A DNA stretch of 64,000 bases from a virus (taxonomy: Duplodnaviria; Caudoviricetes). The notes below the pieces were generated by a model. It saw only the letters and a program-made list of their open reading frames with translations, was not told the DNA's origin and ran no database searches. This document shows, in pieces, positions 6,987-48,754 of the stretch (the stretch's first letter is position 1; each line of letters starts with the position of its first letter). The stretch is taken from the IMG/VR virus record IMGVR_UViG_3300023047_000002; one strand, given 5' to 3'. The position numbers and the translations under genes were made by a program.

Positions 6987-8177
6987 TCATACACACTCAT
7001 ACGTAAAAGAAGCACAAGGAATTTCCTCAGATAAAACAAAACCCAACCTGCCCATCATACGAAGGCACACCTCACATGCAGGAGAAGTCTTGACGTAAGA
7101 TTCATGCATCTCAGGGTACATAAGGGCGAGCAATGAACGAAGGGAAAATCCCACCTGTGAAAACACACGTTCACGAACAATACAATCACGTCCAACCCAC
7201 ACAGGATATTTGCGGATAGCGGCTTTACGCTTCGAAGGCTGCATACATGTAACATCAGAAAACCATATCTCAGGCATCGTCAATTCTACAGCAAACCTAA
7301 ATGACTCTTCAGACGGATTTCTACGAACGGATGACGAACAAAACCAGGTCATGAACTCATTTAAGAATCTGTCCGTAAATCGAAAGTGGGATACCTTTGG
7401 GAACACACGCATGGTAAGTATCGGATACTTACAACAAACTTTACGGGAAGACAAAAGACGTGCATCGAACCGCAAGCACAGGTATGCACACCCACATTCA
7501 ACGTACATAAACGACTCCCTTTTATAATCACACGGCATAAGGTGTTCTACGAAAGGACTGTAGTCTATTCTTGAAAGAAACTCATCATTAGTATTTACAT
7601 CATTCATCACTTTGAAGTCATACTGACAATCCGACGTACCGGACGAATCACGCGCATACAGCAGAGAGTAAAATGTCGGAGAGAAACATTTAATAATGGA
7701 TTTCATCGTTACGTCTTCATCAGATAAAACCGTACCGTATGACGGATAATCGGCAACAGGAAACTTAACTCTGTTTACAGATGAAGACAGTAGAGAATGC
7801 AAACGCATACCTGCTGTTTCATTGAACTTAACACCAAAAGATGACAGCGTTATGGATGTACGTTGTTTGTGTGCAATGCATAAAGCAGGAACTTCTTCGT
7901 GCCTTACAGGGAACTTCCTTATTCTGTAAGAATGAAGGAGTTCTACGAAATGCTTACGTGCAGAAAGCATACGTTCACATTCACAGGAACAGTAACCTCT
8001 CTTGAAAAGTCTTTTAGGATACCAACCTTCCCTCTTGCACAGGACACAAACACACCGGTACATGCGTTTGGAATCATCACCTATACCATCGGTACGGATG
8101 TCACCGGTGAACCTTAACGTATGCGACATCCTTCCCTTTGGCACATCTGAGTTTCTTTTCATGCTGTCACATGTCAT
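6987..8177 (-). CDS. Cys-rich hypothetical protein sharing a zinc-ribbon module with the upstream endonuclease
   Basis: SHTLRFTG...CxCxxC...WYxKRLF...CxCER...HF module also present in 8174-9946; ATGA-coupled to it. Confidence 0.65.
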   Translation of the reverse strand: MTCDSMKRNSDVPKGRMSHTLRFTGDIRTDGIGDDSKRMYRCVCVLCKREGWYPKRLFKRGYCSCECERMLSARKHFVELLHSYRIRKFPVRHEEVPALCIAHKQRTSITLSSFGVKFNETAGMRLHSLLSSSVNRVKFPVADYPSYGTVLSDEDVTMKSIIKCFSPTFYSLLYARDSSGTSDCQYDFKVMNDVNTNDEFLSRIDYSPFVEHLMPCDYKRESFMYVECGCAYLCLRFDARLLSSRKVCCKYPILTMRVFPKVSHFRFTDRFLNEFMTWFCSSSVRRNPSEESFRFAVELTMPEIWFSDVTCMQPSKRKAAIRKYPVWVGRDCIVRERVFSQVGFSLRSLLALMYPEMHESYVKTSPACEVCLRMMGRLGFVLSEEIPCASFTYECV

Positions 8178-9946
8178 ACTGTACTCATATCATCGTCATA
8201 GTATTTAATCCACCTAATGTTGCCTGAACGAGTCACACGGAAGTAACCGAGCTTCTCCATGATGTAGATTTCCTTGCTAGATGCCCCGCATGATACAGCC
8301 TCCTCATAAAGTTCAGGATACCTTGCTTTCAATTTCTTTACCTGAACCTGCTCGCGCCTTACGACCGTAGACACTCCCCTTGCCCAATAGTATGGAAAAC
8401 TCACGTCTATACGTTCAAACCCCAAGCTCGCGTACATGCCTCCTGTGAACAAATCGCAGTCGGAGTAAGAAACAACGGAAGAAGGTCTGTATTCGCGCTC
8501 GAACGCACGAAGCAGCCTTGAGGCACCACCGACAACGGAATACCCATGACGAACTGAAAACCGAAGAAGCTCATACTGACCGCCGGTAAAGCGACCGTCC
8601 TTAAATTTCGGAAGACTGAAAGACATCATGCAGAACACCTCAGAGGTACCCTTGTCTGTAAGGGAATAGGTCACAGACACATTCGTCCTCGCATTAAGAC
8701 CCTGCATGTGATTGCATGAGTAGAAAGAAATCGCCTCTTCATGCGTGGCCTTTCTGATATCCAAGCAACGTGCGTACATAACTTTACGTGGAACCAGAAT
8801 ATCGTGCAGAAATGCCTTCCATGCGTCCTTACGTACATTCCAGGATGTCTGGTATATCTGTACAAGACGTATCCCCTTTGACATGCTATCCTTCCATTTC
8901 CTGTAATGGTATCGTCGGTCTGTACGTATCTTTTCTGAATGCCAGTAATCTCCGTTGCATTCTATCGCGAGGTTCATGGAAGGAATAAAGATGTCATACT
9001 CAAGCCCGTTTTCCATAACACTACGTTCATGCCGTCTGACAATTTCGGGTGATACAAGTGACATAACGTAATCAGACACCTCTTCCTCAAACGCACTTGT
9101 ACGACTGCCGCATTCAAGGCATACAGGCACACGATACTCATTGCTTATTATGTCCTTCATCCTCTTTGTGAACGGGTTTCCGCACACAGAACATTTAAGC
9201 GTGACCTCGTCGCTGTACAGATTGATTTCCTTTCTGTCCAGACGAACAAGTTCACTTTCCTTGAACAGAAGAGGACGTACCCATTCAGGGTATTCACGGG
9301 ATGCAACGAACGTCTCCTTATGAAGACATCCGCATGAACGGGTCATCCCGTTAAGCAGGAGTTTCCTTCTTACAGATACAACACTGCCGCAGTCACATAC
9401 GCAGTCATACCATACAGCAGGGTCATCATGTGGAGGATTTTCAGTTCTCTTTATGACTGTTAGCTTCCCGTACTTCGTTCCCTGCAGAAGATCACCACGA
9501 TTATACTTCGGATACTTCATGACACGGTACTTCTTCAGAATCTCTATGAAGTGCCTTCTTCGTTCCATAAGGCGTTCACAGTCACATTTGGCATAACCTA
9601 GTCTGAAAAGACGCTTTGTGTACCATGAGGATTTGCCACATACAGTGCATGTGCAGTAATACTGACGTACCCCTTCCGTCATCGCATTCCCGGTAAAAAC
9701 AAGCGTGTGGCTCGTGCTTCCTTCTGCATCATCAGACATGTCTGGAGACCTGCGTGACCCTTTCTCTCTTTTGCATACCTTGCATTGAGTCACTAACCCG
9801 CGTGTAAGACGGTTGTACTGCACAATATACTCATTTCCGCAGGAACATCGACATACTGCCCTCAATGCGCTCTGCTCACGATTTTCACCAATAACGGTCA
9901 GGTCTCCAAACACCTCACCTACAATGTTTTTAATTACTGTCGGCAT
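8174..9946 (-). CDS. Putative homing-type endonuclease: Zn-ribbon repeats, PD-(D/E)xK/Vsr-like domain and C-terminal GNAT/Mom-like domain
   Basis: FGxLTV..CxCxCG repeats; EYDIFIP..NLAIECNGDYWHS; ELLRF..VVGGASRLL..VVSYSD..GxxYxxLGF; inserted directly after the capsid gene. Confidence 0.7.
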   Translation of the reverse strand: MPTVIKNIVGEVFGDLTVIGENREQSALRAVCRCSCGNEYIVQYNRLTRGLVTQCKVCKREKGSRRSPDMSDDAEGSTSHTLVFTGNAMTEGVRQYYCTCTVCGKSSWYTKRLFRLGYAKCDCERLMERRRHFIEILKKYRVMKYPKYNRGDLLQGTKYGKLTVIKRTENPPHDDPAVWYDCVCDCGSVVSVRRKLLLNGMTRSCGCLHKETFVASREYPEWVRPLLFKESELVRLDRKEINLYSDEVTLKCSVCGNPFTKRMKDIISNEYRVPVCLECGSRTSAFEEEVSDYVMSLVSPEIVRRHERSVMENGLEYDIFIPSMNLAIECNGDYWHSEKIRTDRRYHYRKWKDSMSKGIRLVQIYQTSWNVRKDAWKAFLHDILVPRKVMYARCLDIRKATHEEAISFYSCNHMQGLNARTNVSVTYSLTDKGTSEVFCMMSFSLPKFKDGRFTGGQYELLRFSVRHGYSVVGGASRLLRAFEREYRPSSVVSYSDCDLFTGGMYASLGFERIDVSFPYYWARGVSTVVRREQVQVKKLKARYPELYEEAVSCGASSKEIYIMEKLGYFRVTRSGNIRWIKYYDDDMSTV

Positions 9947-10164: not shown

Positions 10165-11622
10165 CTAATAACCCTTGATTTCACCACGAACGAGGAGTTC
10201 AGGACGGAGCATCTTATAAGCCCACATACTGATGAAGCCTGATTCGACAGTGAACGTATTTCTAGTCAACCAGTCTGTATGCATGATCGGTAAGTAGTCT
10301 GCGAGCAGTGCACAACTGTTCTCTAATATACTCTTATGACCAACTAAGTACTCGTTTTCACGAATATAAGGTGAACAAATAATCTTGAGTGAGTTATCAA
10401 GAACACCTGCAACGTAAGGACCGTTAGGATTCTCAACATAGTTCGGTTCGAAACGAGGACGACCAATGTTCATAAGAACGTTGAGACCTTCAATACCGAC
10501 AACCGCCCAGTTACCACGGAATTTGTAGCTCTTCTGGTAAATCTTGTTGGCACATTTCTGAAGCTCACCGCAGAAGCTCTCATCGTGTTCACGCTGTGAA
10601 ATGTAATTCGTGTTGGTGCGATCCCACATTGTGCGGTTACCGGCCTGACGCAGAAGGTTGTCAATAACCTCATTGTCACGTTCCTGTTTCATTTCCATTG
10701 TGCAGTTGTCAATAAGGGTCTTCTGAAGGTCAATACCGAAGCTGTTCTGATACATGTAACCTGCATCGAACGAATACTCAACACGGAGTTTGTGAGGAAG
10801 AGCATGAATCGGTTCGTTTCTCATACGGAACACAGGGCGACCAGCCAAAGAAGGAGCAGAACCCAAATCCTGAGTGTAATCAACGAACACACTTGAGAGT
10901 TTGGAAAAAGCATCATTCTCGGATGCAAACATCACAAGACCGCTGTCCGGATTAACTTCGAGGGTACCGGCCTTGAGAAGGTCACTACCGATAGGATAAC
11001 CCTGAGCGTCCAAAGCACGAAGTTCCCATGTGCTCGTGCCTGTTTTGCGAAGTGCATAACGTTTGCTCGAATCACCTGCATCAGTGAAGATAATCTGATT
11101 GTCAGCATCAATGAGCATAGGCATATGTGCAACATGCAATTCGACTTTTCCGCCCACGATCGTAGCGGGTTCACCACAGATACGACCAGAAGCAAAACGG
11201 TTGCGACTTGTGTGATTGACGGAAACGCCAAGGTCGTTAATCATCACGTTGCCCTGGAGATTGTCACCACGGCTGTCACCATAGGTCATTTCCCAGAAAG
11301 TAATCTGACCCTGAGGACTGTCGATAGGCTGCACCCAAATAAGGTCTTCAATAATCGAGGAAGCACTCATCTTGGCAATCATGTTAATCATGTGTTCGGG
11401 GAACCAAGAAATTCCGGACGGCTGAGAAATACCGCTGCGGATGATTCCTTCGTTCACACGTTTCTGACCCTCTTCAAGAACGCGGGCGGCGTTGTTGAAT
11501 GTCAAAAGAAGGGTGTCTTCCTGTGCCGAGGTAAGTTTACCACGAACATCAGTGACTTTCTTAACGTAGGATTCATAATTGCGTTTGAGAATGTTACGAT
11601 CTTCTTTAGTCAAAACTGCCAT
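10165..11622 (-). CDS. gp23: Major capsid protein, T4 gp23-like
   Basis: VQPIDSPQGQITF, HKLRVEYS, GIDL...E...E.D.EVI, GNWAVV and late YLP motifs; strong RBS; follows the prohead protease. Confidence 0.92.
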   Translation of the reverse strand: MAVLTKEDRNILKRNYESYVKKVTDVRGKLTSAQEDTLLLTFNNAARVLEEGQKRVNEGIIRSGISQPSGISWFPEHMINMIAKMSASSIIEDLIWVQPIDSPQGQITFWEMTYGDSRGDNLQGNVMINDLGVSVNHTSRNRFASGRICGEPATIVGGKVELHVAHMPMLIDADNQIIFTDAGDSSKRYALRKTGTSTWELRALDAQGYPIGSDLLKAGTLEVNPDSGLVMFASENDAFSKLSSVFVDYTQDLGSAPSLAGRPVFRMRNEPIHALPHKLRVEYSFDAGYMYQNSFGIDLQKTLIDNCTMEMKQERDNEVIDNLLRQAGNRTMWDRTNTNYISQREHDESFCGELQKCANKIYQKSYKFRGNWAVVGIEGLNVLMNIGRPRFEPNYVENPNGPYVAGVLDNSLKIICSPYIRENEYLVGHKSILENSCALLADYLPIMHTDWLTRNTFTVESGFISMWAYKMLRPELLVRGEIKGY

Positions 11623-11635
11623 AAAAACTCTCCTT

Positions 11636-13165
11636 TCATTTCCCTTTACCGGTAAGGAACACCCCTCGGGCAGGGGCTATTTCGTGAACATCACGCTCAA
11701 AGTTAGATATACTGCGAACACGTCTTTCGTAAGACTTGCCGTTTCCTTTAGTTACTGCATTGTTATCAGCAAGCTCCGTAAGTCGGTCAGCGTCTATTCT
11801 GTATCGTTTCGATAGACGCTGTGTTGTTTCTTGAATGCAATCTTTACCTTCATCAGACATAAGGTCGCTTACGGGCACACGATGACTTTGTTTTTTATTG
11901 TTTACAGCTTCCGTCTTCATCTGTTTATGGTCAAAACGGGTACGTCGAATCTTGCCCGTCGATACCGATTCTACAGCTTCGTCAGTCTTCTTAACTGAAA
12001 CTTTCTGTAAAGAAGACTCACTTACACGTTTTACGATACACTGTGAACGCTTGTAAAGAGAATCAAGTTTACGTGCAAGAGACTCTGCTTTACATGCAAG
12101 CTCTGAATACCGTTCAAGGTAATGTGCCTGATAAATGTCTCTCTCAATACCGGAACGCAAACTTTCGTTACTACGCTTCAAGAACGCTTCATTTGCCTGT
12201 AAAGTTTCAACCTTTTCAGTGAGCGTCTCAATGGTTTCACGATAAGCATCAATATCCTGCTCCATACGGGCAATACGCATACCGTCCGTTTCCTTCTCAG
12301 ACGCGTGAGAGACAGACTCAAAGGCTTTACATGAACCAGAAGCATCCGTAGCTTTATCAGACGAAGACATAATAGCATCAATGCTGAGCTTTTTCGTGTT
12401 ATGGTTTGTTTCATCCTTGCGGTTCAGCGTAAGTGCGTTCACACCATTACTCTTACGGATAACAGAGTTTACTGCATCATCTGTACGTTTTTCAAGTTCC
12501 TGTGCCATATCACGCATACGGCTTTCAAAAGCAGGAATCTTTAATGCGGACAATGCCGCAACATTGCTTCTAAGCTCGCTTGTCGTCATAGACTCAAGCG
12601 ATTTGCTTTCCTGTACCTTTTCAAGGTGTGCGCACTTAAACCCAGGGTCTGGAACTGCATCGAACGTGATTAAGTCGTACTCAGTTTCCGACATCACTTC
12701 CGTATTGCCTTCCATTTTACTTTCTGCAAGAGCACGTGCTGAAATACCGATTTTGCTGCCGTAATCAATAAGCGTTTTAAGAATACGCCCTACCGGCGTG
12801 TCAAGAATAGCGAATCTTCCAAAAACGAGATGGTCGCTGTTCTCTGGGATCCAGATACGTTCCACAGACAAAGCAACCTCAGGGTATGCGATGTCAACAC
12901 GTGTCTCCGGATGTCCACCCTCGCCAAGCATACACTTATTCTTAATGGCCTCTTTGACCGGCGGATAATTGATTATCCTGTCCTCGATCAGCTTTCGGGA
13001 GTAGATGCGGTTGTTTTGGTTGACTTTTCCGAATTCCATGCAAGGCCCTTCCACGATGCATAAAGCATTGGAAGATTTGCCGGAACCCTTCTCGTCAACA
13101 CGCCGCATTTCACTCACGAGCGATTCCGTGACAAGACGTTTTGCTTGTGTTGTCTGTACTGGCAT
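11636..13165 (-). CDS. gp21: Prohead core protease (T4 gp21-like) with long C-terminal scaffold-like coiled-coil extension
   Basis: NQNNRIY, LGEGGHP (His), ILDTPVGRIL, IGISAR (Ser), FDAVPDPG (Asp); roughly 320 extra residues with many xES sites. Confidence 0.9.
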   Translation of the reverse strand: MPVQTTQAKRLVTESLVSEMRRVDEKGSGKSSNALCIVEGPCMEFGKVNQNNRIYSRKLIEDRIINYPPVKEAIKNKCMLGEGGHPETRVDIAYPEVALSVERIWIPENSDHLVFGRFAILDTPVGRILKTLIDYGSKIGISARALAESKMEGNTEVMSETEYDLITFDAVPDPGFKCAHLEKVQESKSLESMTTSELRSNVAALSALKIPAFESRMRDMAQELEKRTDDAVNSVIRKSNGVNALTLNRKDETNHNTKKLSIDAIMSSSDKATDASGSCKAFESVSHASEKETDGMRIARMEQDIDAYRETIETLTEKVETLQANEAFLKRSNESLRSGIERDIYQAHYLERYSELACKAESLARKLDSLYKRSQCIVKRVSESSLQKVSVKKTDEAVESVSTGKIRRTRFDHKQMKTEAVNNKKQSHRVPVSDLMSDEGKDCIQETTQRLSKRYRIDADRLTELADNNAVTKGNGKSYERRVRSISNFERDVHEIAPARGVFLTGKGK

Positions 13166-15187: not shown

Positions 15188-17698
15188 ATGTCAGAACACA
15201 CAAAGAAGAACAGTCAAACACATACAGTGAAAGAATTTGCAGACACATTAAAGTCTTTCAAACCATTTTATCGCATGAAGACATGCACAATCGAACGAGA
15301 GGTAGAAGACATATACAACGAGGGAATATCCTTTTATTTCAAGGATGCAGACATTAAGCACCCTTACGAATGTGATGGAGTTATCTCAACCACATTCGGA
15401 CACGGAAATTTGCTAAAGATGATAATGGAATACAAGTATAACGAAGACATGAAGCAGAAGTCTGCTATTGCAAAAGTTCTTGTCCAAGTAGTGTTCTACC
15501 TCAAACGATTTGAGGATGCAGGAATGGAACTACCTAACGTAGTTATGGTAGGCGACATCAACGAATGCTTTGTCATGCACTCAAACGAACTTCTTAAATA
15601 CCTTGACTGGAATGTGAACTGGAAGACTGCACCGTCTGAAGCATATAAGAAATGCCCTGAAATGGTGCTTGATATCGTTGAAGACGAATCCATAAATCCC
15701 TACGTCTTCTGGATTGATGAGTCATTCGACTTTAAAGACGTTATCGCGAAAATTCACAACCTTTGTGAGAATGTGAAGCGTTATGTGCGTATCACAGAGC
15801 ATAATATTGCATCCATCTTTGAGTATTTCCGTGATCGTGTTCTGCTTAAAAAAGACGCTTTAAGTGCTAATGAACTGGTGACTGTATTTATCGGTCTGAT
15901 AACAAATGATGAAGCGTACTACCTCCATCCGAAAAAGAAAAACACCCTTATTACGCCTAACGGAAACATACCTGTCAACAGTGCTTCCTTTGTCTCATTC
16001 TTTGACCAGTATGCAAGGGAATACACGCCGCAAGAAAGAATGAACTTCACGGCGATTGCTGACCGTCTGATTGAGGATACAACTAGAAGAAGACAGGGTG
16101 CTTTCTTCACGCCAGTTCGGTTTACAGACTTTGCTCACCGCATGATTGAAAAAGAGTTGGGCGAGAATTGGCGTAATGAATACGTTGTTTACGATTGCTG
16201 TTGGGGAACAGGTGGACTGACAAGGGATTACCGCTTCAAAGAACTCTATTGCTCTACACTGGATAAAGGAGAGCTTGAATTGGGTTCGCGGTATAATCCA
16301 GAGGCAACCAAATGGCAAATGGACTTCTTGAATGACGGAGATGAGTGTTTTGACAAAGGTCTGATAAATGCTTTTGAACAAAACAAGCCTATTGTGTTCT
16401 TCATCAATCCGCCTTATGGAACTGCCTGTACTTATGATAATAAATCTAAAGGTGGAACGAATGATACATCGATTCGTGATAATATGACGGAAACTAAGTT
16501 TGGAGGTAGTGAAAATCTTCAACATCAGTTTATGTATCGCATAACAAAGCTAGTTCAGAAGTATAATCTTACGAATGCGTACTTTGCATTATTCTCTAAT
16601 CCAATCTGGCTATCAGGCGCAAAACAGGGTACGTTCTTGAAAAACTTTACATCACGTTGGGAATGTCTTGATGCTTATTTGTTTCAGGCGAGCCATTTTG
16701 CAGATGTTTCTGATGTTTGGGGTATTAGTCTTACTTTATGGAAATCAAATAGACAGGCAACACCAATTAAGGAATACAAACTAAAATTGATTGATATTCT
16801 TGACGATGGTTCTATTGATGTCATAGGAAGTCATGTTCTCTATAACTCAAGTTACTTTAATAAAGCTAATGATTGGGTTCGTGAACCTGTAAAAAGATTA
16901 AAAAGAACGGATTGTTTTCCACCTGTAACATCAGGATTGACCATTAAAGAGTGCAATATAAGGGCTAGTGGAATTGAAGGTCAGTTAGGGTATTGTTTGA
17001 ATAATGCAAATTCAATTCAAGACAATCAGCAGAAAGTGGCTATGTTTTCAACAACATACGGTAACGGTAACGGTCACGGTATATGTAAAGAGAACTTCAC
17101 CCGATGCACAGCACTGTTCACGGCTAGAAAACTCATTGAAAACACATGGATAAATCACGCAGACGAATATCTTGCACCGAACGAGAGTCATCCTGATTAC
17201 AAACGGTTTGAAGCAGACTCAATCGTGTATTCCCTGTTTGAGAATAAATCAAACCAAACGTCGATGCGTCAAATCACGTACAAAGGAAAGCTCTATGATA
17301 TTCCTAATGAGTTCTTCTGGATGTCTAAAGATACCATGATGGGTTTGGCTAATGAAAATCATGATGACTTCATGTTTAACGATGCACGGACAAGCAAAGA
17401 ACGGTATGTGTTTACGCTCTTGCAGAAGCCGGAGATAGCACAGCACTTATCCGAAACAGCAAAACGTCTTCTCGAACTAGCAACAGAGATGACGGTCAAA
17501 TCAATGAAGTATCGCACCCTGTTTGAATCAGACCATCCAGATTACCATATTCACACATGGGATGCAGGGTATTATCAGTTGAAGAACCTTTGGAAAGAAT
17601 ACCTGCCAGAAGACTTCAAGCGATTCCGCGATCTGTTCAAACAGTTCGGAAACGAATTGCGTCCATTGGTTTATGATTTAGGATTCTTACGTAAATAG
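15188..17698 (+). CDS. Type IIG-like fused restriction endonuclease / N6-adenine methyltransferase
   Basis: N-terminal CDG...MEYK...Q..FY nuclease pattern; GAFFTP (motif X), YDCCWGTG (motif I), FINPPY (motif IV); C-terminal TRD-like region. Confidence 0.8.
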   Translation: MSEHTKKNSQTHTVKEFADTLKSFKPFYRMKTCTIEREVEDIYNEGISFYFKDADIKHPYECDGVISTTFGHGNLLKMIMEYKYNEDMKQKSAIAKVLVQVVFYLKRFEDAGMELPNVVMVGDINECFVMHSNELLKYLDWNVNWKTAPSEAYKKCPEMVLDIVEDESINPYVFWIDESFDFKDVIAKIHNLCENVKRYVRITEHNIASIFEYFRDRVLLKKDALSANELVTVFIGLITNDEAYYLHPKKKNTLITPNGNIPVNSASFVSFFDQYAREYTPQERMNFTAIADRLIEDTTRRRQGAFFTPVRFTDFAHRMIEKELGENWRNEYVVYDCCWGTGGLTRDYRFKELYCSTLDKGELELGSRYNPEATKWQMDFLNDGDECFDKGLINAFEQNKPIVFFINPPYGTACTYDNKSKGGTNDTSIRDNMTETKFGGSENLQHQFMYRITKLVQKYNLTNAYFALFSNPIWLSGAKQGTFLKNFTSRWECLDAYLFQASHFADVSDVWGISLTLWKSNRQATPIKEYKLKLIDILDDGSIDVIGSHVLYNSSYFNKANDWVREPVKRLKRTDCFPPVTSGLTIKECNIRASGIEGQLGYCLNNANSIQDNQQKVAMFSTTYGNGNGHGICKENFTRCTALFTARKLIENTWINHADEYLAPNESHPDYKRFEADSIVYSLFENKSNQTSMRQITYKGKLYDIPNEFFWMSKDTMMGLANENHDDFMFNDARTSKERYVFTLLQKPEIAQHLSETAKRLLELATEMTVKSMKYRTLFESDHPDYHIHTWDAGYYQLKNLWKEYLPEDFKRFRDLFKQFGNELRPLVYDLGFLRK

Positions 17699-20558: not shown

Positions 20559-22277
20559 TTACATGGTACGGAAAATGTCACTGATGATACTGTCAGCAAG
20601 TTCGGAAACACTGTTAAATTCAGCCACGTCATAAACTCCCATCATCTGATGAGTATCAGCATACCGAACCTCAACACGGTCCCAAATATCAATCTCGAAT
20701 TTCAAGTAATTACGTATCGTCAAGATACCACGATGTGCTGTCAACATCTTGTAGGAGCATGTGTACATGGAATTTATACCATGCTGTCGTTTATTTCGTT
20801 TAAACGCATCAACGAGAGCCGGCATGAGTTCCTCGTATTCAATACAGTTAGCTTCGTATTTTCTTCTGTAAGAACGAACGCTTCTTGACTCTTTTTTGCC
20901 CTTCTCAAGCAATGACTTTTTACTGTTCAAGTACGCTTTCACATCAGCTGCAGGAGACTGAGTATCTTCAACAATCTGAACGTCATCATAGACATCGAAC
21001 AAAGACACATGATTGCCGTGAACGCTTACACGGATGCACAGGATTTCTTCATCGCTGTGCCCGTTTGTGTAAGCATACGAACCAAACAGGATATAGTTAT
21101 GTGACTTGGTTTCGATATCAACCTTTGCGCACATGTTAAACGGAACTTTGAACCCAAAGAAGTCCTCCATAATGACGCTTGAGTTCAAGAAATCGAGCAT
21201 CACCTGTTTAATGTCGCTTATGGTTGAATTGGTATCCATGATACGTTCATTCGCACTGGTTTTCAGAGACGGACGAAGTTTGCGAAGTTCGTTCTTTCCA
21301 AACACAAGTGAATATTTTTCAAGTCTACGCTTGGATGTTCTACGTTTTGACTCGCCAGTAACGGTATCATACAACGAATCGTAGTCAATCTCATCTTCAG
21401 ACATACCATAATCGTCACGTGTCATTGGATTGAAGTCAAGGTTTTCATCAGGACGCTCGCACATGTAATCGACAGCAACAGATTCCCACAGGCGAGACCA
21501 CATGTCTTCAGCATGATTGCGTGGATGACACCATTCACGTAACTGCAATGTGATTACAGAAATCATATCCTTCAATGACATTTCACGAGACACTGTAACA
21601 ATGCCGTCAGAAGTAAGACCAAACTTTGGCAATTTCTTTGTCAAAGCATTGACCTTTGGGTCTTGCCAGTTAAAAGGAACAAGACCCGGTGATGTAATTT
21701 TCAGTTTTGAAAAAACAGTGTAATATTCTGCATTGTCATTTGCTCCAAGGGATTCAAGCATGGCAGAAATGGACAATTCTCTAACAGTTCCGTTATCTGC
21801 AATGGTGAACTCACGAACATCGACAGTCTCATCATTGCGACCAGTTCCCGGAGTGACATCCACACGAATTTCATCAAAGATGTCAGACATGCGGGCGTCA
21901 TCGTCATCTTTAAAGAAATTCGAGCAAACGATTTCAATGTCTTCTGCTGTTACATCAATGTGAGAAGCCAAAAGCTCCATGGCATCTTCACGGGTAGAGT
22001 TCGGATTGTCAGACAGAACAATCAGAGTTGGGTATAAAGGAATATTCCCATCCTGCTGCAAACGCATAAAGACAAACGTGAAATGACTTCCCAACACGTT
22101 TGAAATGTCTTCCTGCGTGCCTTTCGATACCTGTTCCAACGTCTGACGTGAAGGATAAAACACATCCCATCCATCACGAAGAAGAACGGTAGCGATTGCT
22201 TTTGCTGTCATCCAGTAGGTGCCAATATGGCTTTCGTACCGTTTGTTTACACGATTATATTTGTTTAATCTTATCAT
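20559..22277 (-). CDS. Multi-domain hypothetical protein with basic E-S/A linkers (probable start MIRLNK)
   Basis: GGAG RBS; NRVNKRYES, GESKRRTSKRRLE, KKESRSVRSYRRKYEA. Confidence 0.7.
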   Translation of the reverse strand: MIRLNKYNRVNKRYESHIGTYWMTAKAIATVLLRDGWDVFYPSRQTLEQVSKGTQEDISNVLGSHFTFVFMRLQQDGNIPLYPTLIVLSDNPNSTREDAMELLASHIDVTAEDIEIVCSNFFKDDDDARMSDIFDEIRVDVTPGTGRNDETVDVREFTIADNGTVRELSISAMLESLGANDNAEYYTVFSKLKITSPGLVPFNWQDPKVNALTKKLPKFGLTSDGIVTVSREMSLKDMISVITLQLREWCHPRNHAEDMWSRLWESVAVDYMCERPDENLDFNPMTRDDYGMSEDEIDYDSLYDTVTGESKRRTSKRRLEKYSLVFGKNELRKLRPSLKTSANERIMDTNSTISDIKQVMLDFLNSSVIMEDFFGFKVPFNMCAKVDIETKSHNYILFGSYAYTNGHSDEEILCIRVSVHGNHVSLFDVYDDVQIVEDTQSPAADVKAYLNSKKSLLEKGKKESRSVRSYRRKYEANCIEYEELMPALVDAFKRNKRQHGINSMYTCSYKMLTAHRGILTIRNYLKFEIDIWDRVEVRYADTHQMMGVYDVAEFNSVSELADSIISDIFRTM

Positions 22278-22338
22278 AACACGACAACTCCAAAAAGGTA
22301 AGAGACACAAGCCTGAGAAGTTCGATATACAATAGCTT

Positions 22339-23469
22339 TTAATCTTCAGAACGGACAGGTAGTAAAGGACCACCCTGAGTGTACCCGATAAGCAGTCCGC
22401 CACCTACATGAACCATACTGTTATTGTTGTACCATGTTCCGATAGGTCTGTGATTCGGCGTAGTCATAACAAATCGCTTGGTATCCAGGTAACCCTTTAA
22501 CGTATCGCCCCACATAATTCTGTATGTGTAAGGGTCAGATTCCTCTTCAGAATACCCTGCGAACACAGCGATACGGGCAAATCTGTCTTTACCTAAGACA
22601 GCAGGGATATACGTCTTTAAACTCAGATAATGAGAATCGATATGAAGATGACAAGGAACCCACACGCTCATGTTATTGTTTGCGTTCATGCACGCTGCAT
22701 ATGCAACACCGGGTTTTGTATGCAATGGAAAAGCAAAGTCCTCATCAGAACCTATGCCACAGTCATCAATAGGAGGATAATTCTCATCAGCATCAAGACT
22801 CAGACGGACCGCCAGATACCTTGAACAGTATGATGTATCTCGGTCAGGGTAAAGAAGTTCTCCCATAAGCGAACCACATGCGAACCCCCTAAGATGATCT
22901 TCATCGGACATCTTATGTGAAAAACCATATACCGTGTAACCATCCGAAACAACAATGTAGGAGTAATATTCGTCAGTTCGATTGATGTCTAAAAAAGACT
23001 TAACCATTCTATTACGTGCACCAACAGTTCCGACAAAAGGAGTACTTTGAAAAGGCTTTTTGAGTCCCGTCACATTACCATCATCGTCACGTAGGAACTC
23101 AAATTTTTCTGAACTCGTCGGAGGCACAACAGAACACATAAGACCGCCAGCATATTGACCTGGATGTGTCTGCCCGCACTCATCCTTACCGACCGATGCA
23201 GGGAGACAAAAAGTCATGAACGACTCAGGGACAGCAGAGACATTCATGGCAAAGCACGCTTTCAAACCAGAATCATGCACAAGCAGAATATAGACAATCT
23301 CAGGAAGAACCGCCAATGATTCATCCCAAGTACCTACAAGATTCCACCCATGGTCAATAAGAGATAAAGCAACTCCTGTTAGTACACCACGTGCACCATC
23401 CATATCCGATGTAAAAGTTCCGCCACGGAAAGAATATTCTGAACGCTGAAAAATGCCTACATCTGCCAT
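22339..23469 (-). CDS. Hypothetical protein, possibly structural
   Basis: 376-aa ORF, no recognised motif. Confidence 0.6.
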   Translation of the reverse strand: MADVGIFQRSEYSFRGGTFTSDMDGARGVLTGVALSLIDHGWNLVGTWDESLAVLPEIVYILLVHDSGLKACFAMNVSAVPESFMTFCLPASVGKDECGQTHPGQYAGGLMCSVVPPTSSEKFEFLRDDDGNVTGLKKPFQSTPFVGTVGARNRMVKSFLDINRTDEYYSYIVVSDGYTVYGFSHKMSDEDHLRGFACGSLMGELLYPDRDTSYCSRYLAVRLSLDADENYPPIDDCGIGSDEDFAFPLHTKPGVAYAACMNANNNMSVWVPCHLHIDSHYLSLKTYIPAVLGKDRFARIAVFAGYSEEESDPYTYRIMWGDTLKGYLDTKRFVMTTPNHRPIGTWYNNNSMVHVGGGLLIGYTQGGPLLPVRSED

Positions 23470-34762: not shown

Positions 34763-35082
34763 GTGAACTACCCACCGCATTTAAGATGTTGGACTCTGAT
34801 GCAAGCACATCTCAACTAACATAAAAACTATGAGTGTGATGTGCAGTAAGTCAGCTATCCAACACGTTCCGTATGTTCCACACTTTATTCAATTATAAGG
34901 TTATAGACAAGTCTAGCACAACAAATATCCGGTGGACTTTATTTGCCTGTCGAAAACTTGGACACATACGATACTTATATGCATTTAACATTGAGGTATT
35001 TCCGATCCATTTTTATTCGTCATTGTTACAAATGGCTCGCATTACCCACGGGATTTAGCACGTGGGCTTGCGGATCGCTTTT
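34763..35082 (-). mobile_element. Second non-autonomous IS200/IS605-family mini-element, omegaRNA-like
   Basis: Minus strand: CCAT, then LE aagcgatccgcaagcccacg..ccgtgggtaatgcga (matches 24706 LE), ending gcggtgggtagttcac; no tnpA/tnpB ORF. Confidence 0.7.
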
Positions 35083-38064: not shown

Positions 38065-38577
38065 CTAGCAGAACTGCTCAAGGTCTTCCGTCAAAGCGTC
38101 AATCATCTCACGGGTGAGTTCTTTTCTTCCACTTCCAAGGGAATCCATTGAAGGACACTCGTCGAGCACTTCACGGACATAATGCTCAAGCAAAAGAACA
38201 CAGAAAGCATCCGGATCAGAAAGAGGATTCGGGTTGCAGGAACCAGTTTCAGAAACCCATTCATTCAGAACGTCACCGGCATCGTAACGGTTCTGCGAAA
38301 TGAAATCCCATGATTTCTGTGTGGACATGAAAACCGTTCCGTCCATGGTTTCCCTACCGGTCAATTCCGTTGCAAGATCGTCCATATAGACTTCAACGCC
38401 TTCCATCTCATCCAGACGATCAATGCAATGTTCCGCAGCCCATTTCTTTAATTCATTGTCATTCATGTTGTATGATGACTCAAAATGTCTCCGGCCACGG
38501 ATACGCATTGAGCGATCTGACGGAACTCGTTTCTCGGAACGTGTACGACGAATGTTTCTTATGTTGTGTTTAATCAT
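38065..38577 (-). CDS. Acidic hypothetical protein with Arg-rich leader
   Basis: GGAGG RBS; MIKHNIRNIRRTRSEKR...RGRRHFES, then an acidic helical body. Confidence 0.75.
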   Translation of the reverse strand: MIKHNIRNIRRTRSEKRVPSDRSMRIRGRRHFESSYNMNDNELKKWAAEHCIDRLDEMEGVEVYMDDLATELTGRETMDGTVFMSTQKSWDFISQNRYDAGDVLNEWVSETGSCNPNPLSDPDAFCVLLLEHYVREVLDECPSMDSLGSGRKELTREMIDALTEDLEQFC

Positions 38578-38590
38578 GGTAAAACCTCCA

Positions 38591-40107
38591 TTAACGTGAA
38601 TTAGCGTTATCATATTCTGACGCAAAACGACTTGCAATATCGGAAATTAAGTCCTCAACGGTTTCTCCGACATAATCACCGTTATCATCATGTATCCCAT
38701 CGCCATCAAAGGAATACATGACTTCTGCTAAAGAACCGAATCGTGAACTTCTTCTGTGAGCACTTCTGTCATCACAAAGAACCACATTGATTGTCGGAAC
38801 GCCGTCATCCGATTCAAGACCATCCTCAATGTCGATGCTTGCGTTTACACGACGGAAATGAAATTCATTCTTGCATACTGCCTCAAAGCTAACCTGCACT
38901 TTGTCAATGAAGTCACTTAAATCATTCGCTATCTCGCTGTAAGCATCTAAGCCATTACTTTCATACTACGAGAACGACGAGGACGTTTGCTTTCAAAATT
39001 GCGACGCATTCTATCCCAATCATCCGAAAGGTTTTGAACTTCATCAACAATCCAATCACTGATCTTGTTCTTCACTTGCTCAAGAGAAAGCATACGAAGT
39101 TTGCCAGTCGGCGCAACGCACAGATACAAAGGAATGTCCAAAGTATTGATCCAGACTTCAATACCAGACTCATTCACCAGATTGAGGTAGATACGAATAC
39201 CCGTTGGAAAATGTCCCGTAGCTCCTCCACGTGCTTCATTGACATCAAACATACCGCCTTGAAGCCTACCGAAATGCCGTTTTAATGTATTTACGAGCTT
39301 GTCAAATGCAGCCTGTGTATCTGAATCAACGGACACGTTATTTCGTGGTTTACCCTGAGAAATACACCTACGAAAATCATCGTAGGTTTCACCGAGGTCG
39401 ATACCATCCAAATCCATGAGCTGTTCCATGTAACTCAAGAACGCGCTTGCAATAGACTCAAGCACTGACTGGGATTTCAATCCCATCAAATGAAGTCCAA
39501 GAACCTCATTACAGTACGTCAACAGCTGCATGTCCAACATTTCTGAAAGCGAGTAGTCGTTTGCTTCCAGAGCTTTCTTGTTCTCGTACTTGTGTTGTAC
39601 GCGTAAATTTCGTTTACGTATCATACCCTTTCCCTCTGCTCGAAATTTATCGAAATCCTGATTAAAACTGTCGATTGCCTTTAATATGTGCTTACAAGCA
39701 TACCCGTGCCTGTCAGGATTTGTTTCATTTGGTGGACGACGTTCAATGTCAACACTACCACCCTTTACAGAAGCACGGAACTTGTACCCCTGATAGGTGA
39801 AAGCAGGACATGTACAGTCTATTTCGATATTACCCTTTACGGCGTGCTGTATTTCATCATCCAAGTGTGCCATGTCAGGATTCCATTCCTTAAAACGGAA
39901 CGTGACCGTGTACGACTTCCCTGCTTTCGCTTGTGACGTGACGCTGTAATGAACATCTCCTGTATCTTTGTTGAAGTCTACGAAACGTGCAACGATATTC
40001 GATGAACGTGAACGTGCATAACTTCTTCGGTCAGACAAATTTTGGATGTCTCGTGAGGTTACTTCATCGTGTCGTAAACAATTTGCATGTCCATGCTGCT
40101 TCGTCAT
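38591..40107 (-). CDS. SWIM zinc-finger polyprotein-like gene, split by an apparent 1-nt frameshift near 38966 (ORFs 38947-40116 and 38591-38899)
   Basis: CTCPAF...CKH SWIM motif; CGT-AG-TAT-GAA-AGT, where one added base gives R-x-YES (RKYES if A) continuing in frame into the downstream ORF. Confidence 0.7.
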
Positions 40108-40124
40108 AACAAGCACCCCGAAAC

Positions 40125-44449: not shown

Positions 44450-46834
44450 CTAGGAAAAATGATAACGTGTAACGGCGAGTGGGAATTCTTCAATCTCGCT
44501 TACCCAAAGCACTGATTCTTTTGACAAAGTGGCCTCTGTCCAACACAAAGGAAATCCACCAATTCCGTCAAACAAACTTGCCATTGTTGTAGTATCTCCG
44601 TCTTTCTTTAAATGGTTTACAATATTATTGCACAACCATTTCCAGAAAGGCAAAGCAATTGAGTTGCCTAACGCTTTGTACTTAGGTGCGTCTGCTTCCT
44701 TGTGCTTCTTACCTTTCGTATCAACCCAATCACCAATATCGATCCATCCATTCGGATAACCCTGCAATCGTGTACACTCAAGGGGCGTTAAACGTCGAAC
44801 ACGATACTGGACAGGCTGTGCTACTGCATGAGGACCACGAGCAACCATTGACGGGATGGTTTCAGTCTCTTCAATCTTAATGTCGAACTGTGCATTCTTA
44901 CCTTGATTAAAAGCTGCACGATCTACAACAACAGGATGACGTTCAGTAGATGACTCTGTTTCGCCATACGAAACACAACACCCTGAATTACTGACCGGTT
45001 CCATAATAGCAGTACCCCCCTGGTTATTCGGTACACATCCATTCGTGGTTATCGTCCCAGACTGTTCCGTTTCGTAACACCCGCTGTTAGGATTGGAACT
45101 TTTCATACTGTTACTATTCACACCGACCAACTGATAAGCACAAGGCTCTAGAATAGTCATTGGGTCGTGCATACAATTTAACGTCTGTGAAACCTCTTCA
45201 GTGTAATGATTTGTACTCTCCGCCTGACCATTTCCAATGCAGATACACGGATAAGACGGGTCTGGGTTTCTTTCTTCTGTCGGAAGAGACAGTGCAACGT
45301 CATCGGAACTCTGTTTCACGAATACATACTCTTTTGTTGTGGTCTTCAAAGCATGAGACATTTCACTCATAACTGATACGCCGGATTCATGTGCATCACC
45401 ATTAATTGAATAAGTCTCTTCTGTAACCATCGGAACATAACCGCCACCTAAACCCATGGATTCCGGTAAAGTAGAGCACACGCCATTATTAGTAACAGTA
45501 GCATGATTCTGATTGCTTTCTAAAAGATAAGGCTCTACATTACATATATTCGGAACCTGACCTGTAGTAAGCGTTGGTGAGATTCCGTCATGACGAACAC
45601 CACAACCTGTACCTTTTATAGAAGCAATGCCGTGTGAAACAGCACTAGAGTCTAATGTGTAAGGTTCTGAAGACACAACGACATTCGTATAATCCATTAT
45701 TCTGTTGTCATGGTCTCCTGTAAGGGTTGCACTAAGTCGTCCATTTCCGTTTCCACGAGCGTCCCAGATTCTATCTGATTCTTCAGGGCTTCCAGTAGAG
45801 GTTTCGGCAGCTCCTTCCCCATGCGAGTTGCACGTGTCAAAATCCCGTTGCACGCTCTGCTGCTCAAATAATACTTCTGGGGCGGACATTCCTCCAAAAT
45901 CGCAGACAAGCGCGATTCGACGACGGCGTTGGGCGACTCCCCAATATTGTGCGTCATGTACTCTCCAAGCAATGCTCCATCTTCCCATGTCATCATAGAG
46001 GATTCCGGACTTTGGCCACTTTCCGTCTTTAGGCATAGGCACATCAGGGATTTCCGTTTCTCTTCCATCGCTGTCTTCTTCTTCAATGTTCTTTTCGCCA
46101 TCTTTCATTCCTTTGTTGAGGTTTATCTTACCCAAGAGAGCTGTATGCACACACTCATTTAAAACACACTGAAAGTCCTTTCCTTTGTTGCAGTTGAGCA
46201 ACCCAGTTACGTTCTCAAGAACCATATATCGTGGTTTCATAAAGTCCGTAGCCTGACGCATTTCTTTTATGACACGCATCTGTTCAAGGAAGAGACGTGA
46301 CTCGCTCCCTTCAAGACCCTTTCGGTTTCCGGCCACAGACAGGTTCTGACAATTGTGAACAACGATGTTTTCAGCAACATAGCTGTTATCCTCATCAACC
46401 TCAAGGTTATACACGGTACATGTTGTGTGAATATCTTTAACAGACTTCACTTCAATCCACACGAACTCATTATGACGTGAACCGTCCACGTATGCCCAAC
46501 GCATACCAAACATGTCCATTGCAGGTGTCCACAAGGTATCATTGCCATCAAGGTATTTCGAGTAAAACGGATGTCCCGCAGTGCAAATGATGTCATGCAT
46601 TCCGTCCGTAAGTTTTACAAGGGATGCTTTACGTGTTCCGGTAGATAGTACCCTTCTGTACCGTTGTCTGTGTGTATAAACAAAATCACCGACAAGGACA
46701 TCCTCGATAGGTTTTTGTCCGACGTCGGTCATTATCATCGTGCCGCCAGGGAAACATGGACTTCCTCCAATAACACAGTCCACAGCCTCAACATTCCCAC
46801 CGTTGATAAGACAAATGTCTCCGTAATTTTTCAT
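44450..46834 (-). CDS. Circularly permuted DNA (cytosine-5) methyltransferase with mini-intein
   Basis: Starts at motif III (GDI), then GGSP[intein]CQ, ENV, QRRRR, RRLTPLEC, GNS, and ends with motif I SLFDGIGG and motif II SEIE. Confidence 0.9.
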   Translation of the reverse strand: MKNYGDICLINGGNVEAVDCVIGGSPCFPGGTMIMTDVGQKPIEDVLVGDFVYTHRQRYRRVLSTGTRKASLVKLTDGMHDIICTAGHPFYSKYLDGNDTLWTPAMDMFGMRWAYVDGSRHNEFVWIEVKSVKDIHTTCTVYNLEVDEDNSYVAENIVVHNCQNLSVAGNRKGLEGSESRLFLEQMRVIKEMRQATDFMKPRYMVLENVTGLLNCNKGKDFQCVLNECVHTALLGKINLNKGMKDGEKNIEEEDSDGRETEIPDVPMPKDGKWPKSGILYDDMGRWSIAWRVHDAQYWGVAQRRRRIALVCDFGGMSAPEVLFEQQSVQRDFDTCNSHGEGAAETSTGSPEESDRIWDARGNGNGRLSATLTGDHDNRIMDYTNVVVSSEPYTLDSSAVSHGIASIKGTGCGVRHDGISPTLTTGQVPNICNVEPYLLESNQNHATVTNNGVCSTLPESMGLGGGYVPMVTEETYSINGDAHESGVSVMSEMSHALKTTTKEYVFVKQSSDDVALSLPTEERNPDPSYPCICIGNGQAESTNHYTEEVSQTLNCMHDPMTILEPCAYQLVGVNSNSMKSSNPNSGCYETEQSGTITTNGCVPNNQGGTAIMEPVSNSGCCVSYGETESSTERHPVVVDRAAFNQGKNAQFDIKIEETETIPSMVARGPHAVAQPVQYRVRRLTPLECTRLQGYPNGWIDIGDWVDTKGKKHKEADAPKYKALGNSIALPFWKWLCNNIVNHLKKDGDTTTMASLFDGIGGFPLCWTEATLSKESVLWVSEIEEFPLAVTRYHFS
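46352..46756 (-). mobile_element. 135-aa mini-intein without endonuclease
   Basis: Begins CFPGGT, block B TAGHPF, ends VYNLEV...VVHN; +1 residue is the MTase catalytic Cys. Confidence 0.92.
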
Positions 46835-46929: not shown

Positions 46930-47757
46930 TCAATGTCTCCATGTCACATTGATATCCTGGTCCATACCCACGGACACTTCTGCGTACTCCCACGTGTTCG
47001 TGTACTTAACAGATTCAGGAATCACGTACCCGACAATAACATCCATAAATCCGCTTCTCAAACGGTTTATAATTGCGTAGTCCTGCTTTTTTAAAAAGGC
47101 AGTCTCTTTAAGAGCCGCTTTCACACCTGCCTGACTCATTGCAAAGACTTCAAAGTCATGGACATTATTTTCAACAGCAGGGTATTCCATACACTGTGCC
47201 AACGTGCGCTCACCATAGAGAAGCGAGTAAAAACGATAAGCCATACCTGTCGTTTTGGTAGAAGCACCGTCATCACCGTCAGCTTCATAACGTTTTCCGC
47301 GTGACAATCTACGCTGAATAATATGCTCATATCTGGTTCGTCGCCTGGAAGCACAACAAACGGACTCCGAGTACACAGGACCACTCATACGAGTCCTTAC
47401 AAACTCCAACAAGTCTTCATACGACTTGTTACCAGATGCTATAAGATAAAATATGTCCGCAAGCTCAGATGTAGAGCAATTAAGAGAGATTCCATTTAGT
47501 TGCAAAACTGATAACAAGACTAAACAACCTACACGTTTATTTCCATCAATAAACCCACGATTCTTGACGAGACCGTATCCTAGTCTTGAAGCCTTTTCTT
47601 CAGCATTTACGTAAAATTCGACCTCTCCGAAACCCTGAAATGCAGCGTTGTATGCACTTTCAACCAAACCACGGTCACGAATACCGTCATCACCGCCAGT
47701 ACTAGCAATGATGGAATCGTGGTAACGATAAACATCTTCAAGTCGGATGATCTTCAT
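46930..47757 (-). CDS. doc: Doc/Fic-family protein with His-to-Arg active-site change, fused to a C-terminal extension
   Basis: GIRDRGLVESA, EEKASRL, KNRGFIDGNKR (canonical HxFxDGNKR). Confidence 0.85.
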   Translation of the reverse strand: MKIIRLEDVYRYHDSIIASTGGDDGIRDRGLVESAYNAAFQGFGEVEFYVNAEEKASRLGYGLVKNRGFIDGNKRVGCLVLLSVLQLNGISLNCSTSELADIFYLIASGNKSYEDLLEFVRTRMSGPVYSESVCCASRRRTRYEHIIQRRLSRGKRYEADGDDGASTKTTGMAYRFYSLLYGERTLAQCMEYPAVENNVHDFEVFAMSQAGVKAALKETAFLKKQDYAIINRLRSGFMDVIVGYVIPESVKYTNTWEYAEVSVGMDQDINVTWRH

Positions 47758-47942
47758 TCAGCAAGTCTCCTAAAGGTATCAGAATATTTTTTAAGAAGAA
47801 ATGAAATTGATTCGTCGATCTCAGACTGACTCGCATAAGTTAAAATAGACTCTTTAACACGTTCGCGAGAAGCGCATTTTTCATTGCTTCGTTGTCTCAC
47901 ATACCGGCTGTAGCGGTTAGCTTTACGCTTTAGGAATGCCAT
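47754..47942 (-). CDS. Putative antitoxin peptide for Doc, with basic leader
   Basis: ATGA overlap with doc; C-terminal KKYSDTFRRLAE resembles Doc-neutralising helices. Confidence 0.6.
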   Translation of the reverse strand: MAFLKRKANRYSRYVRQRSNEKCASRERVKESILTYASQSEIDESISFLLKKYSDTFRRLAE

Positions 47943-48074
47943 ATACAAACTCCGATCCATTTTTATTCACCATTGGTAACAATGGCTACTATTAAATCAC
48001 ACCAAACAAGGTGTGGAGGGATCTCTCAGCGCAAGAAACATCTGCTTTAACAAAATGTTTCTTGCTCCTTCAAC

Positions 48075-48113
48075 ACTGTAACACAAAAACACATCGTTCC
48101 GTAAACAGCACCA
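48075..48113 (-). promoter_or_regulatory. Promoter-like motif TGGTGCTG-N22-TGTTACAGT
   Basis: Upstream of the antitoxin/doc pair; same -10-like box as 14743. Confidence 0.7.
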
Positions 48114-48127
48114 CGATTCACCGCAAG

Positions 48128-48754
48128 TCACTTCAACTCCTCGGCTAACGTCTTCTGCTGTTTAGCCAAAAGATGCTTGACCCGAGTTGCCATCTTTTTA
48201 TCTGTTTTATCAGGAACAACAGGAACATCCAAAGTGTGTTCTGCCAACTGTCCAAGACAAATAACCGTTCTGACGGGTACATAAGAGGGGCACTGGGTGA
48301 CACCTGCACTGCACATGTCCTCACACACATACAATGGAATATCGCAAAGAATCTCCTGCATATAAGATTCAGCAATCCCAGACAAGCTCTCAAGAAACAT
48401 CTCAACAGAATTTACATCTGAAATATTGTCACATGACGCAATAAAAGCATCCTCATAACACGGAACATCATCACACGAATAAAGAATGTCTGCATCAAAG
48501 ACATGAACCGTGTTCTCAAAACGGAAAACAACAGACAGTGAGAATAAAGTAAATCCAGTGTCAACCATGACAAGATCAATAACGTAAGTTAAAGGATCTT
48601 CTGAATAAAGGTAAAGATTGAGGTCAACGCTAAACGGAATCAAAGAAGGAATGCCGAGTACCGTATCACAAATGATCTGAAGCATCGGATGTTCACCAAA
48701 GTCTTGGTAATTATCTGACGCCTCACATAGTACTTTGCGTTTATGTCTTGTCAT
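48128..48754 (-). CDS. Acidic hypothetical protein with short basic leader
   Basis: MTRHKRKVLCEAS. Confidence 0.6.
   Translation of the reverse strand: MTRHKRKVLCEASDNYQDFGEHPMLQIICDTVLGIPSLIPFSVDLNLYLYSEDPLTYVIDLVMVDTGFTLFSLSVVFRFENTVHVFDADILYSCDDVPCYEDAFIASCDNISDVNSVEMFLESLSGIAESYMQEILCDIPLYVCEDMCSAGVTQCPSYVPVRTVICLGQLAEHTLDVPVVPDKTDKKMATRVKHLLAKQQKTLAEELK

Follow-up and report, generated by a model that had tools for sequence, protein, structure and literature searches.

The window analysed here, a stretch of 64,000 nucleotides from a virus of the Caudoviricetes (IMG/VR record IMGVR_UViG_3300023047_000002), carries a small toxin-antitoxin locus. Its Doc toxin has arginine at the position of the catalytic histidine, is fused to a conserved module of 117 amino acids (aa) and is preceded by a short open reading frame (ORF) that resembles an antitoxin. 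The reading that we favour, with a probability of about 0.6, is that the locus is a self-promoted phd'-doc cassette that lies in a hot spot for mobile DNA, has become fused to a constrained neighbour and persists as a dispensable selfish passenger. By origin and architecture the pair is a Phd-Doc type II module, and what is new is an antitoxin consisting of the helix only, a fusion by read-through and, in the lineage of the window, the missing catalytic His. The original prediction, made from the sequence alone, took the locus for a captured toxin-antitoxin module domesticated by the change from His to Arg. The capture of a Phd/Doc-type module stands, but domestication by this change is not supported, since the closest relatives with the same fusion (contigs L004 and L015) and about 20 further relatives keep the His.

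One intergenic site in three states

A phage gene is split in two here, and the cassette lies between its halves. The upstream half (the N-fragment) matches proteins of 341-370 aa from more distant phages (BLASTP 6e-21) that carry the module at their C-terminal end. Because these proteins join a homologue of the N-fragment to the module, the gene is in two pieces in the clade of the window.

The intergenic site between the two pieces is found empty, with a TnpB gene or with the cassette. It is empty in a 138-kb IMG/VR contig (L016), where 18 bases past the stop of the N-fragment a GGAG-N7-ATG opens a gene of 142 aa, which consists of a basic leader and the module and has its own ribosome-binding site and ATG. 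In a 238.7-kb contig (L023) the site is occupied by an IS605 OrfB/TnpB gene (414 aa, L023:2244-3488) with end hairpins, and a stand-alone module gene comes after it. The antitoxin-Doc cassette is what the window, L003, L004 and L015 carry at this site. The idea that the cassette itself had split an intact gene was dropped, since L016 and L023 have the split without the cassette.

The junction between cassette and module can be placed exactly. Homology between the window and L016 restarts at the GGAG (window 47365-47368, codons S130-E131), which is precisely where the likeness of the window Doc to free-standing Doc ends. The linker is made up of the end of the Doc homology (S130-E131-S132), the translated former ribosome-binding site and start region, and the basic leader of the downstream gene to Y157-E158/A159. 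A basic tag that ends in Glu, with Ser or Ala next, had been noticed on both partners, and such sites are present, at residues 31/32 of the antitoxin and 158/159 of the fusion. That Doc had acquired the tag does not hold. Because homology with L016 resumes at the GGAG, the Glu-Ala site of the fusion belongs to the leader of the downstream gene and is not a feature of Doc; in L016, L023 and P0045 this gene stands alone.

Upstream of the antitoxin gene there is an element like an extended -10 box, common to cassettes in unrelated contexts (L005:5760-5780, L006:1225-1245 and about 48075-48090 in the window). It is degenerate in the window, with three mismatches, and occurs nowhere else there. Because the element is shared across the contexts of L005 and L006, it suggests that the cassette carries its own promoter. 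A scan of the locus for sigma-70 promoters and terminators was uninformative, with five promoter-like sites against 5.1 expected.

The cassette resembles insertions of the IS200/IS605 (TnpB) group in its location, since L023 has OrfB_IS605/TnpB at the same site, and in containing a hairpin-bearing mini-insertion of 115 bp, but unlike them it encodes no transposase or nuclease. The mini-insertion is private to the window genome and is included in the cassette span in Table 1. It has a perfect 11-bp hairpin (arms 48031-48041 and 48055-48065), gives the small ORF a spurious ATG further upstream and has one 18-bp match, at 35001-35018.

Other mobile DNA is found close by. The C5 DNA methyltransferase gene beside the locus (window 44450-46834) carries an intein (Hint), the corresponding insert in L015 (5093-8189) is larger and has an HNH domain, and the gene is without insert in L016 (4472-6376, 634 aa) and L023 (3958-5928, 656 aa). 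Several selfish elements are thus polymorphic at the locus. Beside the head genes, the window encodes an HNH homing endonuclease of 590 aa (8174-9946; PHROG 559, 1e-76).

The antitoxin-Doc pair and codon 67

The Doc domain of the fusion is readily recognised. Residues 1-123 score 39.5 bits against Pfam PF02661 (cut-off 24), the ORF matches PHROG 577 'Doc-like toxin' at 1e-25, and the score for NCBIfam TIGR01550 (DOC_P1) is just below its cut-off (34.9 and 38.65 respectively). Doc toxins of Streptococcus prophages are 44-46% identical to this domain, and a megablast search with a 6-kb region gave no matches among GenBank phages. An AlphaFold model of the fusion, built on 24 sequences, has a helical Doc domain, a disordered stretch at aa 130-168 (predicted local distance difference test, pLDDT, below 50) and an alpha/beta domain at aa ~170-275. 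The predicted template modelling score (pTM) is 0.45, and the domains are without a fixed mutual orientation. The extra domain of roughly 115 aa that had been described behind a linker thus corresponds to the 117-aa module, which folds separately in the model. Codon 124 of the fusion is an in-frame ATG with AAGGA five bases upstream (window 47386-47400).

The motif of the window Doc reads K-N-R-G-F-I-D-G-N-K-R. D71, G72, N73, K74 and R75 are invariant across the Doc alignment, and F69 is also intact. In the alignment Arg67 falls on His66 of P1 Doc (3K33/3DD7) and on the His of 9vzc, which confirms that the CGT codon of the NRGFIDGNKR stretch, one base from CAT, is at the catalytic position; the nearest His allele is CAT, a single transition away. 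Besides the window's own contig (L012, a 243,109-bp ENA contig), the Arg allele is found in L013 and in L014 (the latter from a JGI sample), two assemblies identical to the window over 1.2-1.6 kb, and in L003, a 60-kb Logan contig with ~99.5% DNA identity to the window. CGT is seen in the assemblies of four samples (ERZ27246314, ERZ27246275, JGI 3300012973 and SRR11450194), and the identical antitoxin is present in 13 contigs. The change from His to Arg is genuine, and sequencing error is excluded because the Arg codon occurs in independent assemblies.

L004 and L015, with ~92% protein identity, match the window in gene order and fusion but have CAT (His) at codon 67. His is also found in L005, L006, ~20 further relatives, the Doc proteins of 161 aa and 202 aa from related large phages and the streptococcal Docs, and Arg at this position was seen in no relative found outside the lineage of the window. 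The Arg allele is therefore limited to one species-level lineage and is not a property of the family. The original prediction had proposed that conservation of both the fusion and the Arg be checked in related phages: the fusion is shared with L004 and L015, the Arg is private to the lineage. At the level of a lineage, this is the private mutation that the prediction itself had named as grounds for its refutation. Because L004 and L015 share the fusion but keep the His, the fusion appears to predate the loss of His, which would be recent. P1 Doc loses its toxicity when the motif His is mutated (PMC2686095), and Arg67 very probably kills the kinase activity. The fusion protein of the window is, on this evidence, a Doc homologue yet probably not a Doc enzyme.

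The small ORF upstream starts with the ATG at 47942 behind the ribosome-binding site GGAG, which gives 62 aa. A 68-aa reading was rejected, as its start falls inside the 115-bp insertion private to the window genome. The stop of the antitoxin gene overlaps the Doc start (ATGA) in the window, L003-L006 and L015, and the two genes are thus adjacent, co-oriented and translationally coupled, as in type II toxin-antitoxin systems. Autoregulation by a DNA-binding antitoxin is also a mark of such systems and is not to be expected here: no DNA-binding domain was detected. The 62-aa product has no family in Pfam, NCBIfam or PHROG (E up to 1), and the N-terminal dimerisation and DNA-binding domain of Phd/YefM (PF02604) is absent, its columns being empty in the alignment to full-length Phd. 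Upstream of every contig-placed Doc gene of the phage group lies a coupled ORF of 57-63 aa, with a variable basic N-terminus and with the last ~27 residues nearly invariant.

The C-terminus of the antitoxin aligns end-to-end with that of the Phd of a Streptococcus prophage (Javan181), although the two profiles match only weakly (E 0.0086, 33% identity over 33 columns, hhalign probability 4.7%). A model of the Doc domain in complex with the 62-aa product reached an interface score (ipSAE) of 0.91, with 0.00 for the best control. Of 80 solved complexes 58 attain the mark used, as do 2 of 110 mismatched pairs. The runs agreed in at least 91% of the contacts, and the pLDDT of the partner was at least 62. 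The predicted interface takes in residues 32-61 of the antitoxin and, on the side of Doc, those around the motif. The score shows likeness and not proof, as it may stem from solved Phd-Doc structures. It agrees with published work in which residues 52-73 of Phd were enough to bind and neutralise Doc (PMC9207808). The alignment and the model support the view that the 62-aa ORF is a minimal Phd that has lost its DNA-binding domain and kept a predicted Doc-binding helix, as had been read from its basic leader and antitoxin-like helix.

Compared with P1 Phd-Doc (3K33, 3DD7), the locus has the same order of two translationally coupled genes with the antitoxin first, a toxin of the Fic fold with the D-x-N-K-R half of the motif, and an antitoxin whose C-terminal helix is predicted to lie on the active-site face of Doc. 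It differs in that the antitoxin is without the Phd/YefM N-domain, so that autoregulation at an operator, as in P1, is not to be expected, in that the toxin is fused to an unrelated module and has Arg for its catalytic His, and in its carrier, which is a ~243-kb (gut) phage and not a plasmid prophage. The Phd/Doc pairs of Streptococcus prophages such as Javan181 are the closest annotated Doc relatives, with antitoxin C-termini that align, but they have a full-length Phd (85 aa) and a free-standing toxin (~123 aa) with His.

Table 1. Positions of the features at and around the Doc locus of the window
Feature	Position	Strand	Evidence or remark
Fusion ORF, 275 aa	46930-47757	(-)	Doc domain, disordered basic linker and 117-aa module
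Doc (Fic-fold kinase) domain, aa 1-125	47383..47757	(-)	PF02661, PHROG 577, PDB Doc chains
Codon 67, CGT (Arg), at the catalytic-His position of the Doc/Fic motif	47557..47559	(-)	CAT or CAC in sister lineages
Linker, aa 126-158	47284..47382	(-)	Alignment with L016 and free-standing Doc genes; pLDDT <50
Conserved 117-aa C-terminal module, aa 159-275 and stop	46930..47283	(-)	Alpha/beta model, no fold match
Minimal Phd-like antitoxin, 62 aa: basic leader aa 1-31, Doc-binding helical region (predicted) aa 32-62	47754..47942	(-)	
Cassette by comparison with the empty site: upstream element, antitoxin gene, Doc gene lacking its own 3' end	47369..48127	(-)	
115-bp mini-insertion with hairpin, flanking GGAG duplication	47950..48064	(-)	Absent from 99.5%-identical L003
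N-fragment gene, 208 aa from ATG	48128..48754	(-)	Homologous to the N-terminal part of 341-370-aa module-bearing proteins
Major capsid protein, T4 gp23 type	10165..11622	(-)	Pfam Gp23 1e-24 from residue 76; PHROG 138
Prohead protease, T4 gp21 type	11636..13165	(-)	Pfam Peptidase_S77 5e-13, S80 3e-7; PHROG 207

Selection on the fused gene and the order of events

Ratios of non-synonymous to synonymous substitution rates (dN/dS) were compared among the window, L004 and L015. The module has the lowest values, 0.04-0.08 (dS 0.32-0.36), followed by the N-fragment with 0.18 and the antitoxin with 0.18-0.41, and the Doc domain has 0.56-0.64, the pair in which both have His included. Summed over branches, the Doc domain has synonymous and non-synonymous changes at 7:14 and the module at 23:5, and in a rough binomial estimate of low power those of Doc are compatible with neutrality (P about 0.2). 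Purifying selection on the module is strong, and the Doc domain is indistinguishable from neutral evolution. The dS of Doc is unusually low (0.06-0.09), about a quarter of that in the module and N-fragment (0.29-0.36), which could reflect recent spread or exchange of the cassette among diverged lineages by recombination through the flanks. Between the near-identical genomes of the window and L003, the antitoxin (L003:5816-6004) has three non-synonymous differences and no synonymous ones, and 483 flanking codons have two and one respectively; the 3:0 ratio may reflect relaxation after inactivation of the toxin.

The module family was found only in large uncultured phages. The module may have a gene of its own, 138-155 aa long with a short basic leader, may form the C-terminal part of a protein of 183-370 aa or may lie behind Doc, and it always ends in W-(R/K)-H or W-H. 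Two further candidates, P0034 (a TPR protein) and P0036 (an Ig-repeat protein), proved to be spurious homologues after a Pfam search. The model of the module is confident, with a core pLDDT of 84-94. Foldseek searches of PDB and BFVD gave no E-value below 0.1 (best E >0.1), VIA-align wide gave nothing clear (best Z 3.8), and comparison with the ESM Atlas by shape and features gave TM <0.5; such a blank does not establish a new fold.

The favoured reading would imply the following order of events. A compact phd'-doc cassette would have entered the intergenic hot spot between the two halves of the split gene, and at insertion or soon after, Doc would have lost its own C-terminus and stop codon. 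The Doc frame would then have read through the former ribosome-binding site, start codon and basic leader of the neighbour, so that the module came to be made as a Doc fusion. Sister lineages would have retained the catalytic His of the toxin, and in the lineage of the window one A-to-G transition would have turned it into Arg, most likely abolishing the kinase activity. The frame would be held open since the strongly constrained module is translated through the cassette.

Several points weigh against the reading of the cassette as a dispensable passenger. The Doc frame is intact in every lineage and the antitoxin helix is conserved. Moreover, Doc and the minimal antitoxin are kept with an intact motif in ~20 clusters of related large phages, a retention that argues for a function at the level of the family. 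The empty site of L016 does not settle the direction of change, as L016 differs from the cassette-bearing genomes by 8-10% in the flanks, the same as they do among themselves, so that all are about equidistant, and the informative-site patterns of the quartet (12/11/8) do not separate an ancestral empty site from a deletion. The ATG at codon 124 could be an internal start that yields a Doc-free product of 152 aa. Substitution counts are small, and the dN/dS of Doc is inflated by its low dS. Finally, no second copy of the module was found within the 64-kb window, which covers only part of the ~243-kb genome.

Basic-Glu motifs and alternative explanations

The alternative that survives best, a modified form of the virion cargo proposed in the original prediction, is that the locus encodes virion cargo by hitch-hiking, which we regard as possible, at odds well short of even. 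The module would be an internal head protein and its basic leader a propeptide, cut by the S77 protease after Y157-E158. Doc would be released in the prohead together with an antitoxin trimmed after E31, and both would be ejected into the next host, where the Doc of a His lineage would be an effector and that of the Arg lineage inert ballast or a decoy. The more specific version, in which Doc is a natural passenger on a propeptide, with cuts at Y157-E158/A159 by S77 and at E31/S32 in the antitoxin and ejection of a Doc:peptide complex, is distinctly less probable.

Cargo of this kind would fit the gp21-type protease and the gp23-type capsid protein encoded in the window. Relatives of the protease cleave after Glu, and SPN3US, in which the site is AXE, has a head that holds many ejected proteins (PMC10052503). 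The window protease has 509 aa, of which the C-terminal ~280 residues form a long charged extension rich in Glu-Ser and Glu-Ala sites.

Basic motifs ending in Glu were counted in 42 ORFs of the window and compared with shuffled sequences. Sites with at least three K/R in the six residues before Glu and S, A or G after it number 14 (4.7+-2.0 in shuffles), and the same pattern followed by other residues shows no excess (16 against 19.4). The motif (K/R)(K/R)x0-1(Y/F)E occurs nine times with 2.3 expected, a count reached in 1 of 400 shuffles, and S or A follows in seven of the eight distinct sites; a control with Asp in place of Glu gave no excess. Its carriers are the capsid protein, the ORFs at 15188-17698, 20559-22403, 38065-38637 and 38947-40116, and the Doc fusion. 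These looser definitions were tested after a stricter tag (at least four K/R in seven residues), which gave four sites, none of them at the Doc locus.

In the capsid protein the motif, basic-YE/S, is in the N-terminal extension (residues 13-17). All three proteins of the locus bear a basic-Glu site, and basic tails with E/A or E/S are also found on free-standing Doc homologues. The ten closest proteins with the module all have E158-A159, within a linker that is otherwise variable. The putative cut in the antitoxin directly precedes the segment predicted to bind Doc, which begins at residue 32.

The tag of the fusion, however, is inherited from the neighbouring gene and is uninformative on selection for packaging Doc, and L005 and L006 have not conserved the E/S site of the antitoxin. 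No fold or family can be recognised for the module, which adjoins genes for tail fibre and methylase, not head genes. An injected kinase of EF-Tu would also hit phage translation, and the close relative L016 is without the cassette. The comparison with the gp21-cut leaders of T4 internal proteins and Alt and with the propeptides of SPN3US (PMC10052503) is divided in the same way. The gp21-family protease and the gp23-family capsid protein are shared, and the leaders in the window are short, N-terminal or internal, have Glu as their last residue with a small residue after it and occur on several unrelated proteins. Unlike those of T4 and SPN3US, the leaders in the window, which are putative, are strongly basic, (K/R)(K/R)x(Y/F)E and not LxE or AXE, and Doc is N-terminal to its leader and not behind it.

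It is improbable that the locus serves as anti-defence, with the minimal Phd peptide neutralising Doc-type abortive-infection toxins of the host and the phage Doc as a dead partner or decoy. The conserved antitoxin helix would suit such a role, and the candidate defence-system models PDC-S23 and PDC-M59B match Doc-like domains. The antitoxin, on the other hand, always travels with its own Doc, the motif of which is intact in most lineages, and the non-synonymous differences between the near-identical Arg genomes hint at relaxation.

Still less credit can be given to the view that the Arg67 variant remains an enzyme with a changed chemistry or target, a neo-functionalised Fic/Doc. The other motif residues, F69 and D71 to R75, are all intact and the Arg allele is common across samples. 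Yet the motif His is needed for Doc toxicity and for Fic catalysis (PMC2686095), Arg is in no other relative found, and a single recent transition has left the active site otherwise unaltered. An artefact of sequencing or assembly at codon 67, which would have undone the original prediction, has practically no chance given CGT in four different samples and is already refuted.

If the leader motif is a signal for the prohead protease, the Doc fusion becomes a test case for the selection of cargo in large phages. If Doc is indeed a passenger on the propeptide, phages of the His lineages would deliver a translation kinase, and the fusion would be the natural equivalent of engineered T4 capsid-targeting fusions. 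The locus also defines a family of minimal Phd antitoxins with a Doc-binding helix only, a natural match to the peptide neutralisation studies, and the site with its three states is a ready-made comparison for dispensability. With regard to the favoured reading of the locus, a toxin-antitoxin cassette may lock into a giant phage of the lytic type, where fusion to a constrained gene keeps the frame open despite inactivation of the toxin.

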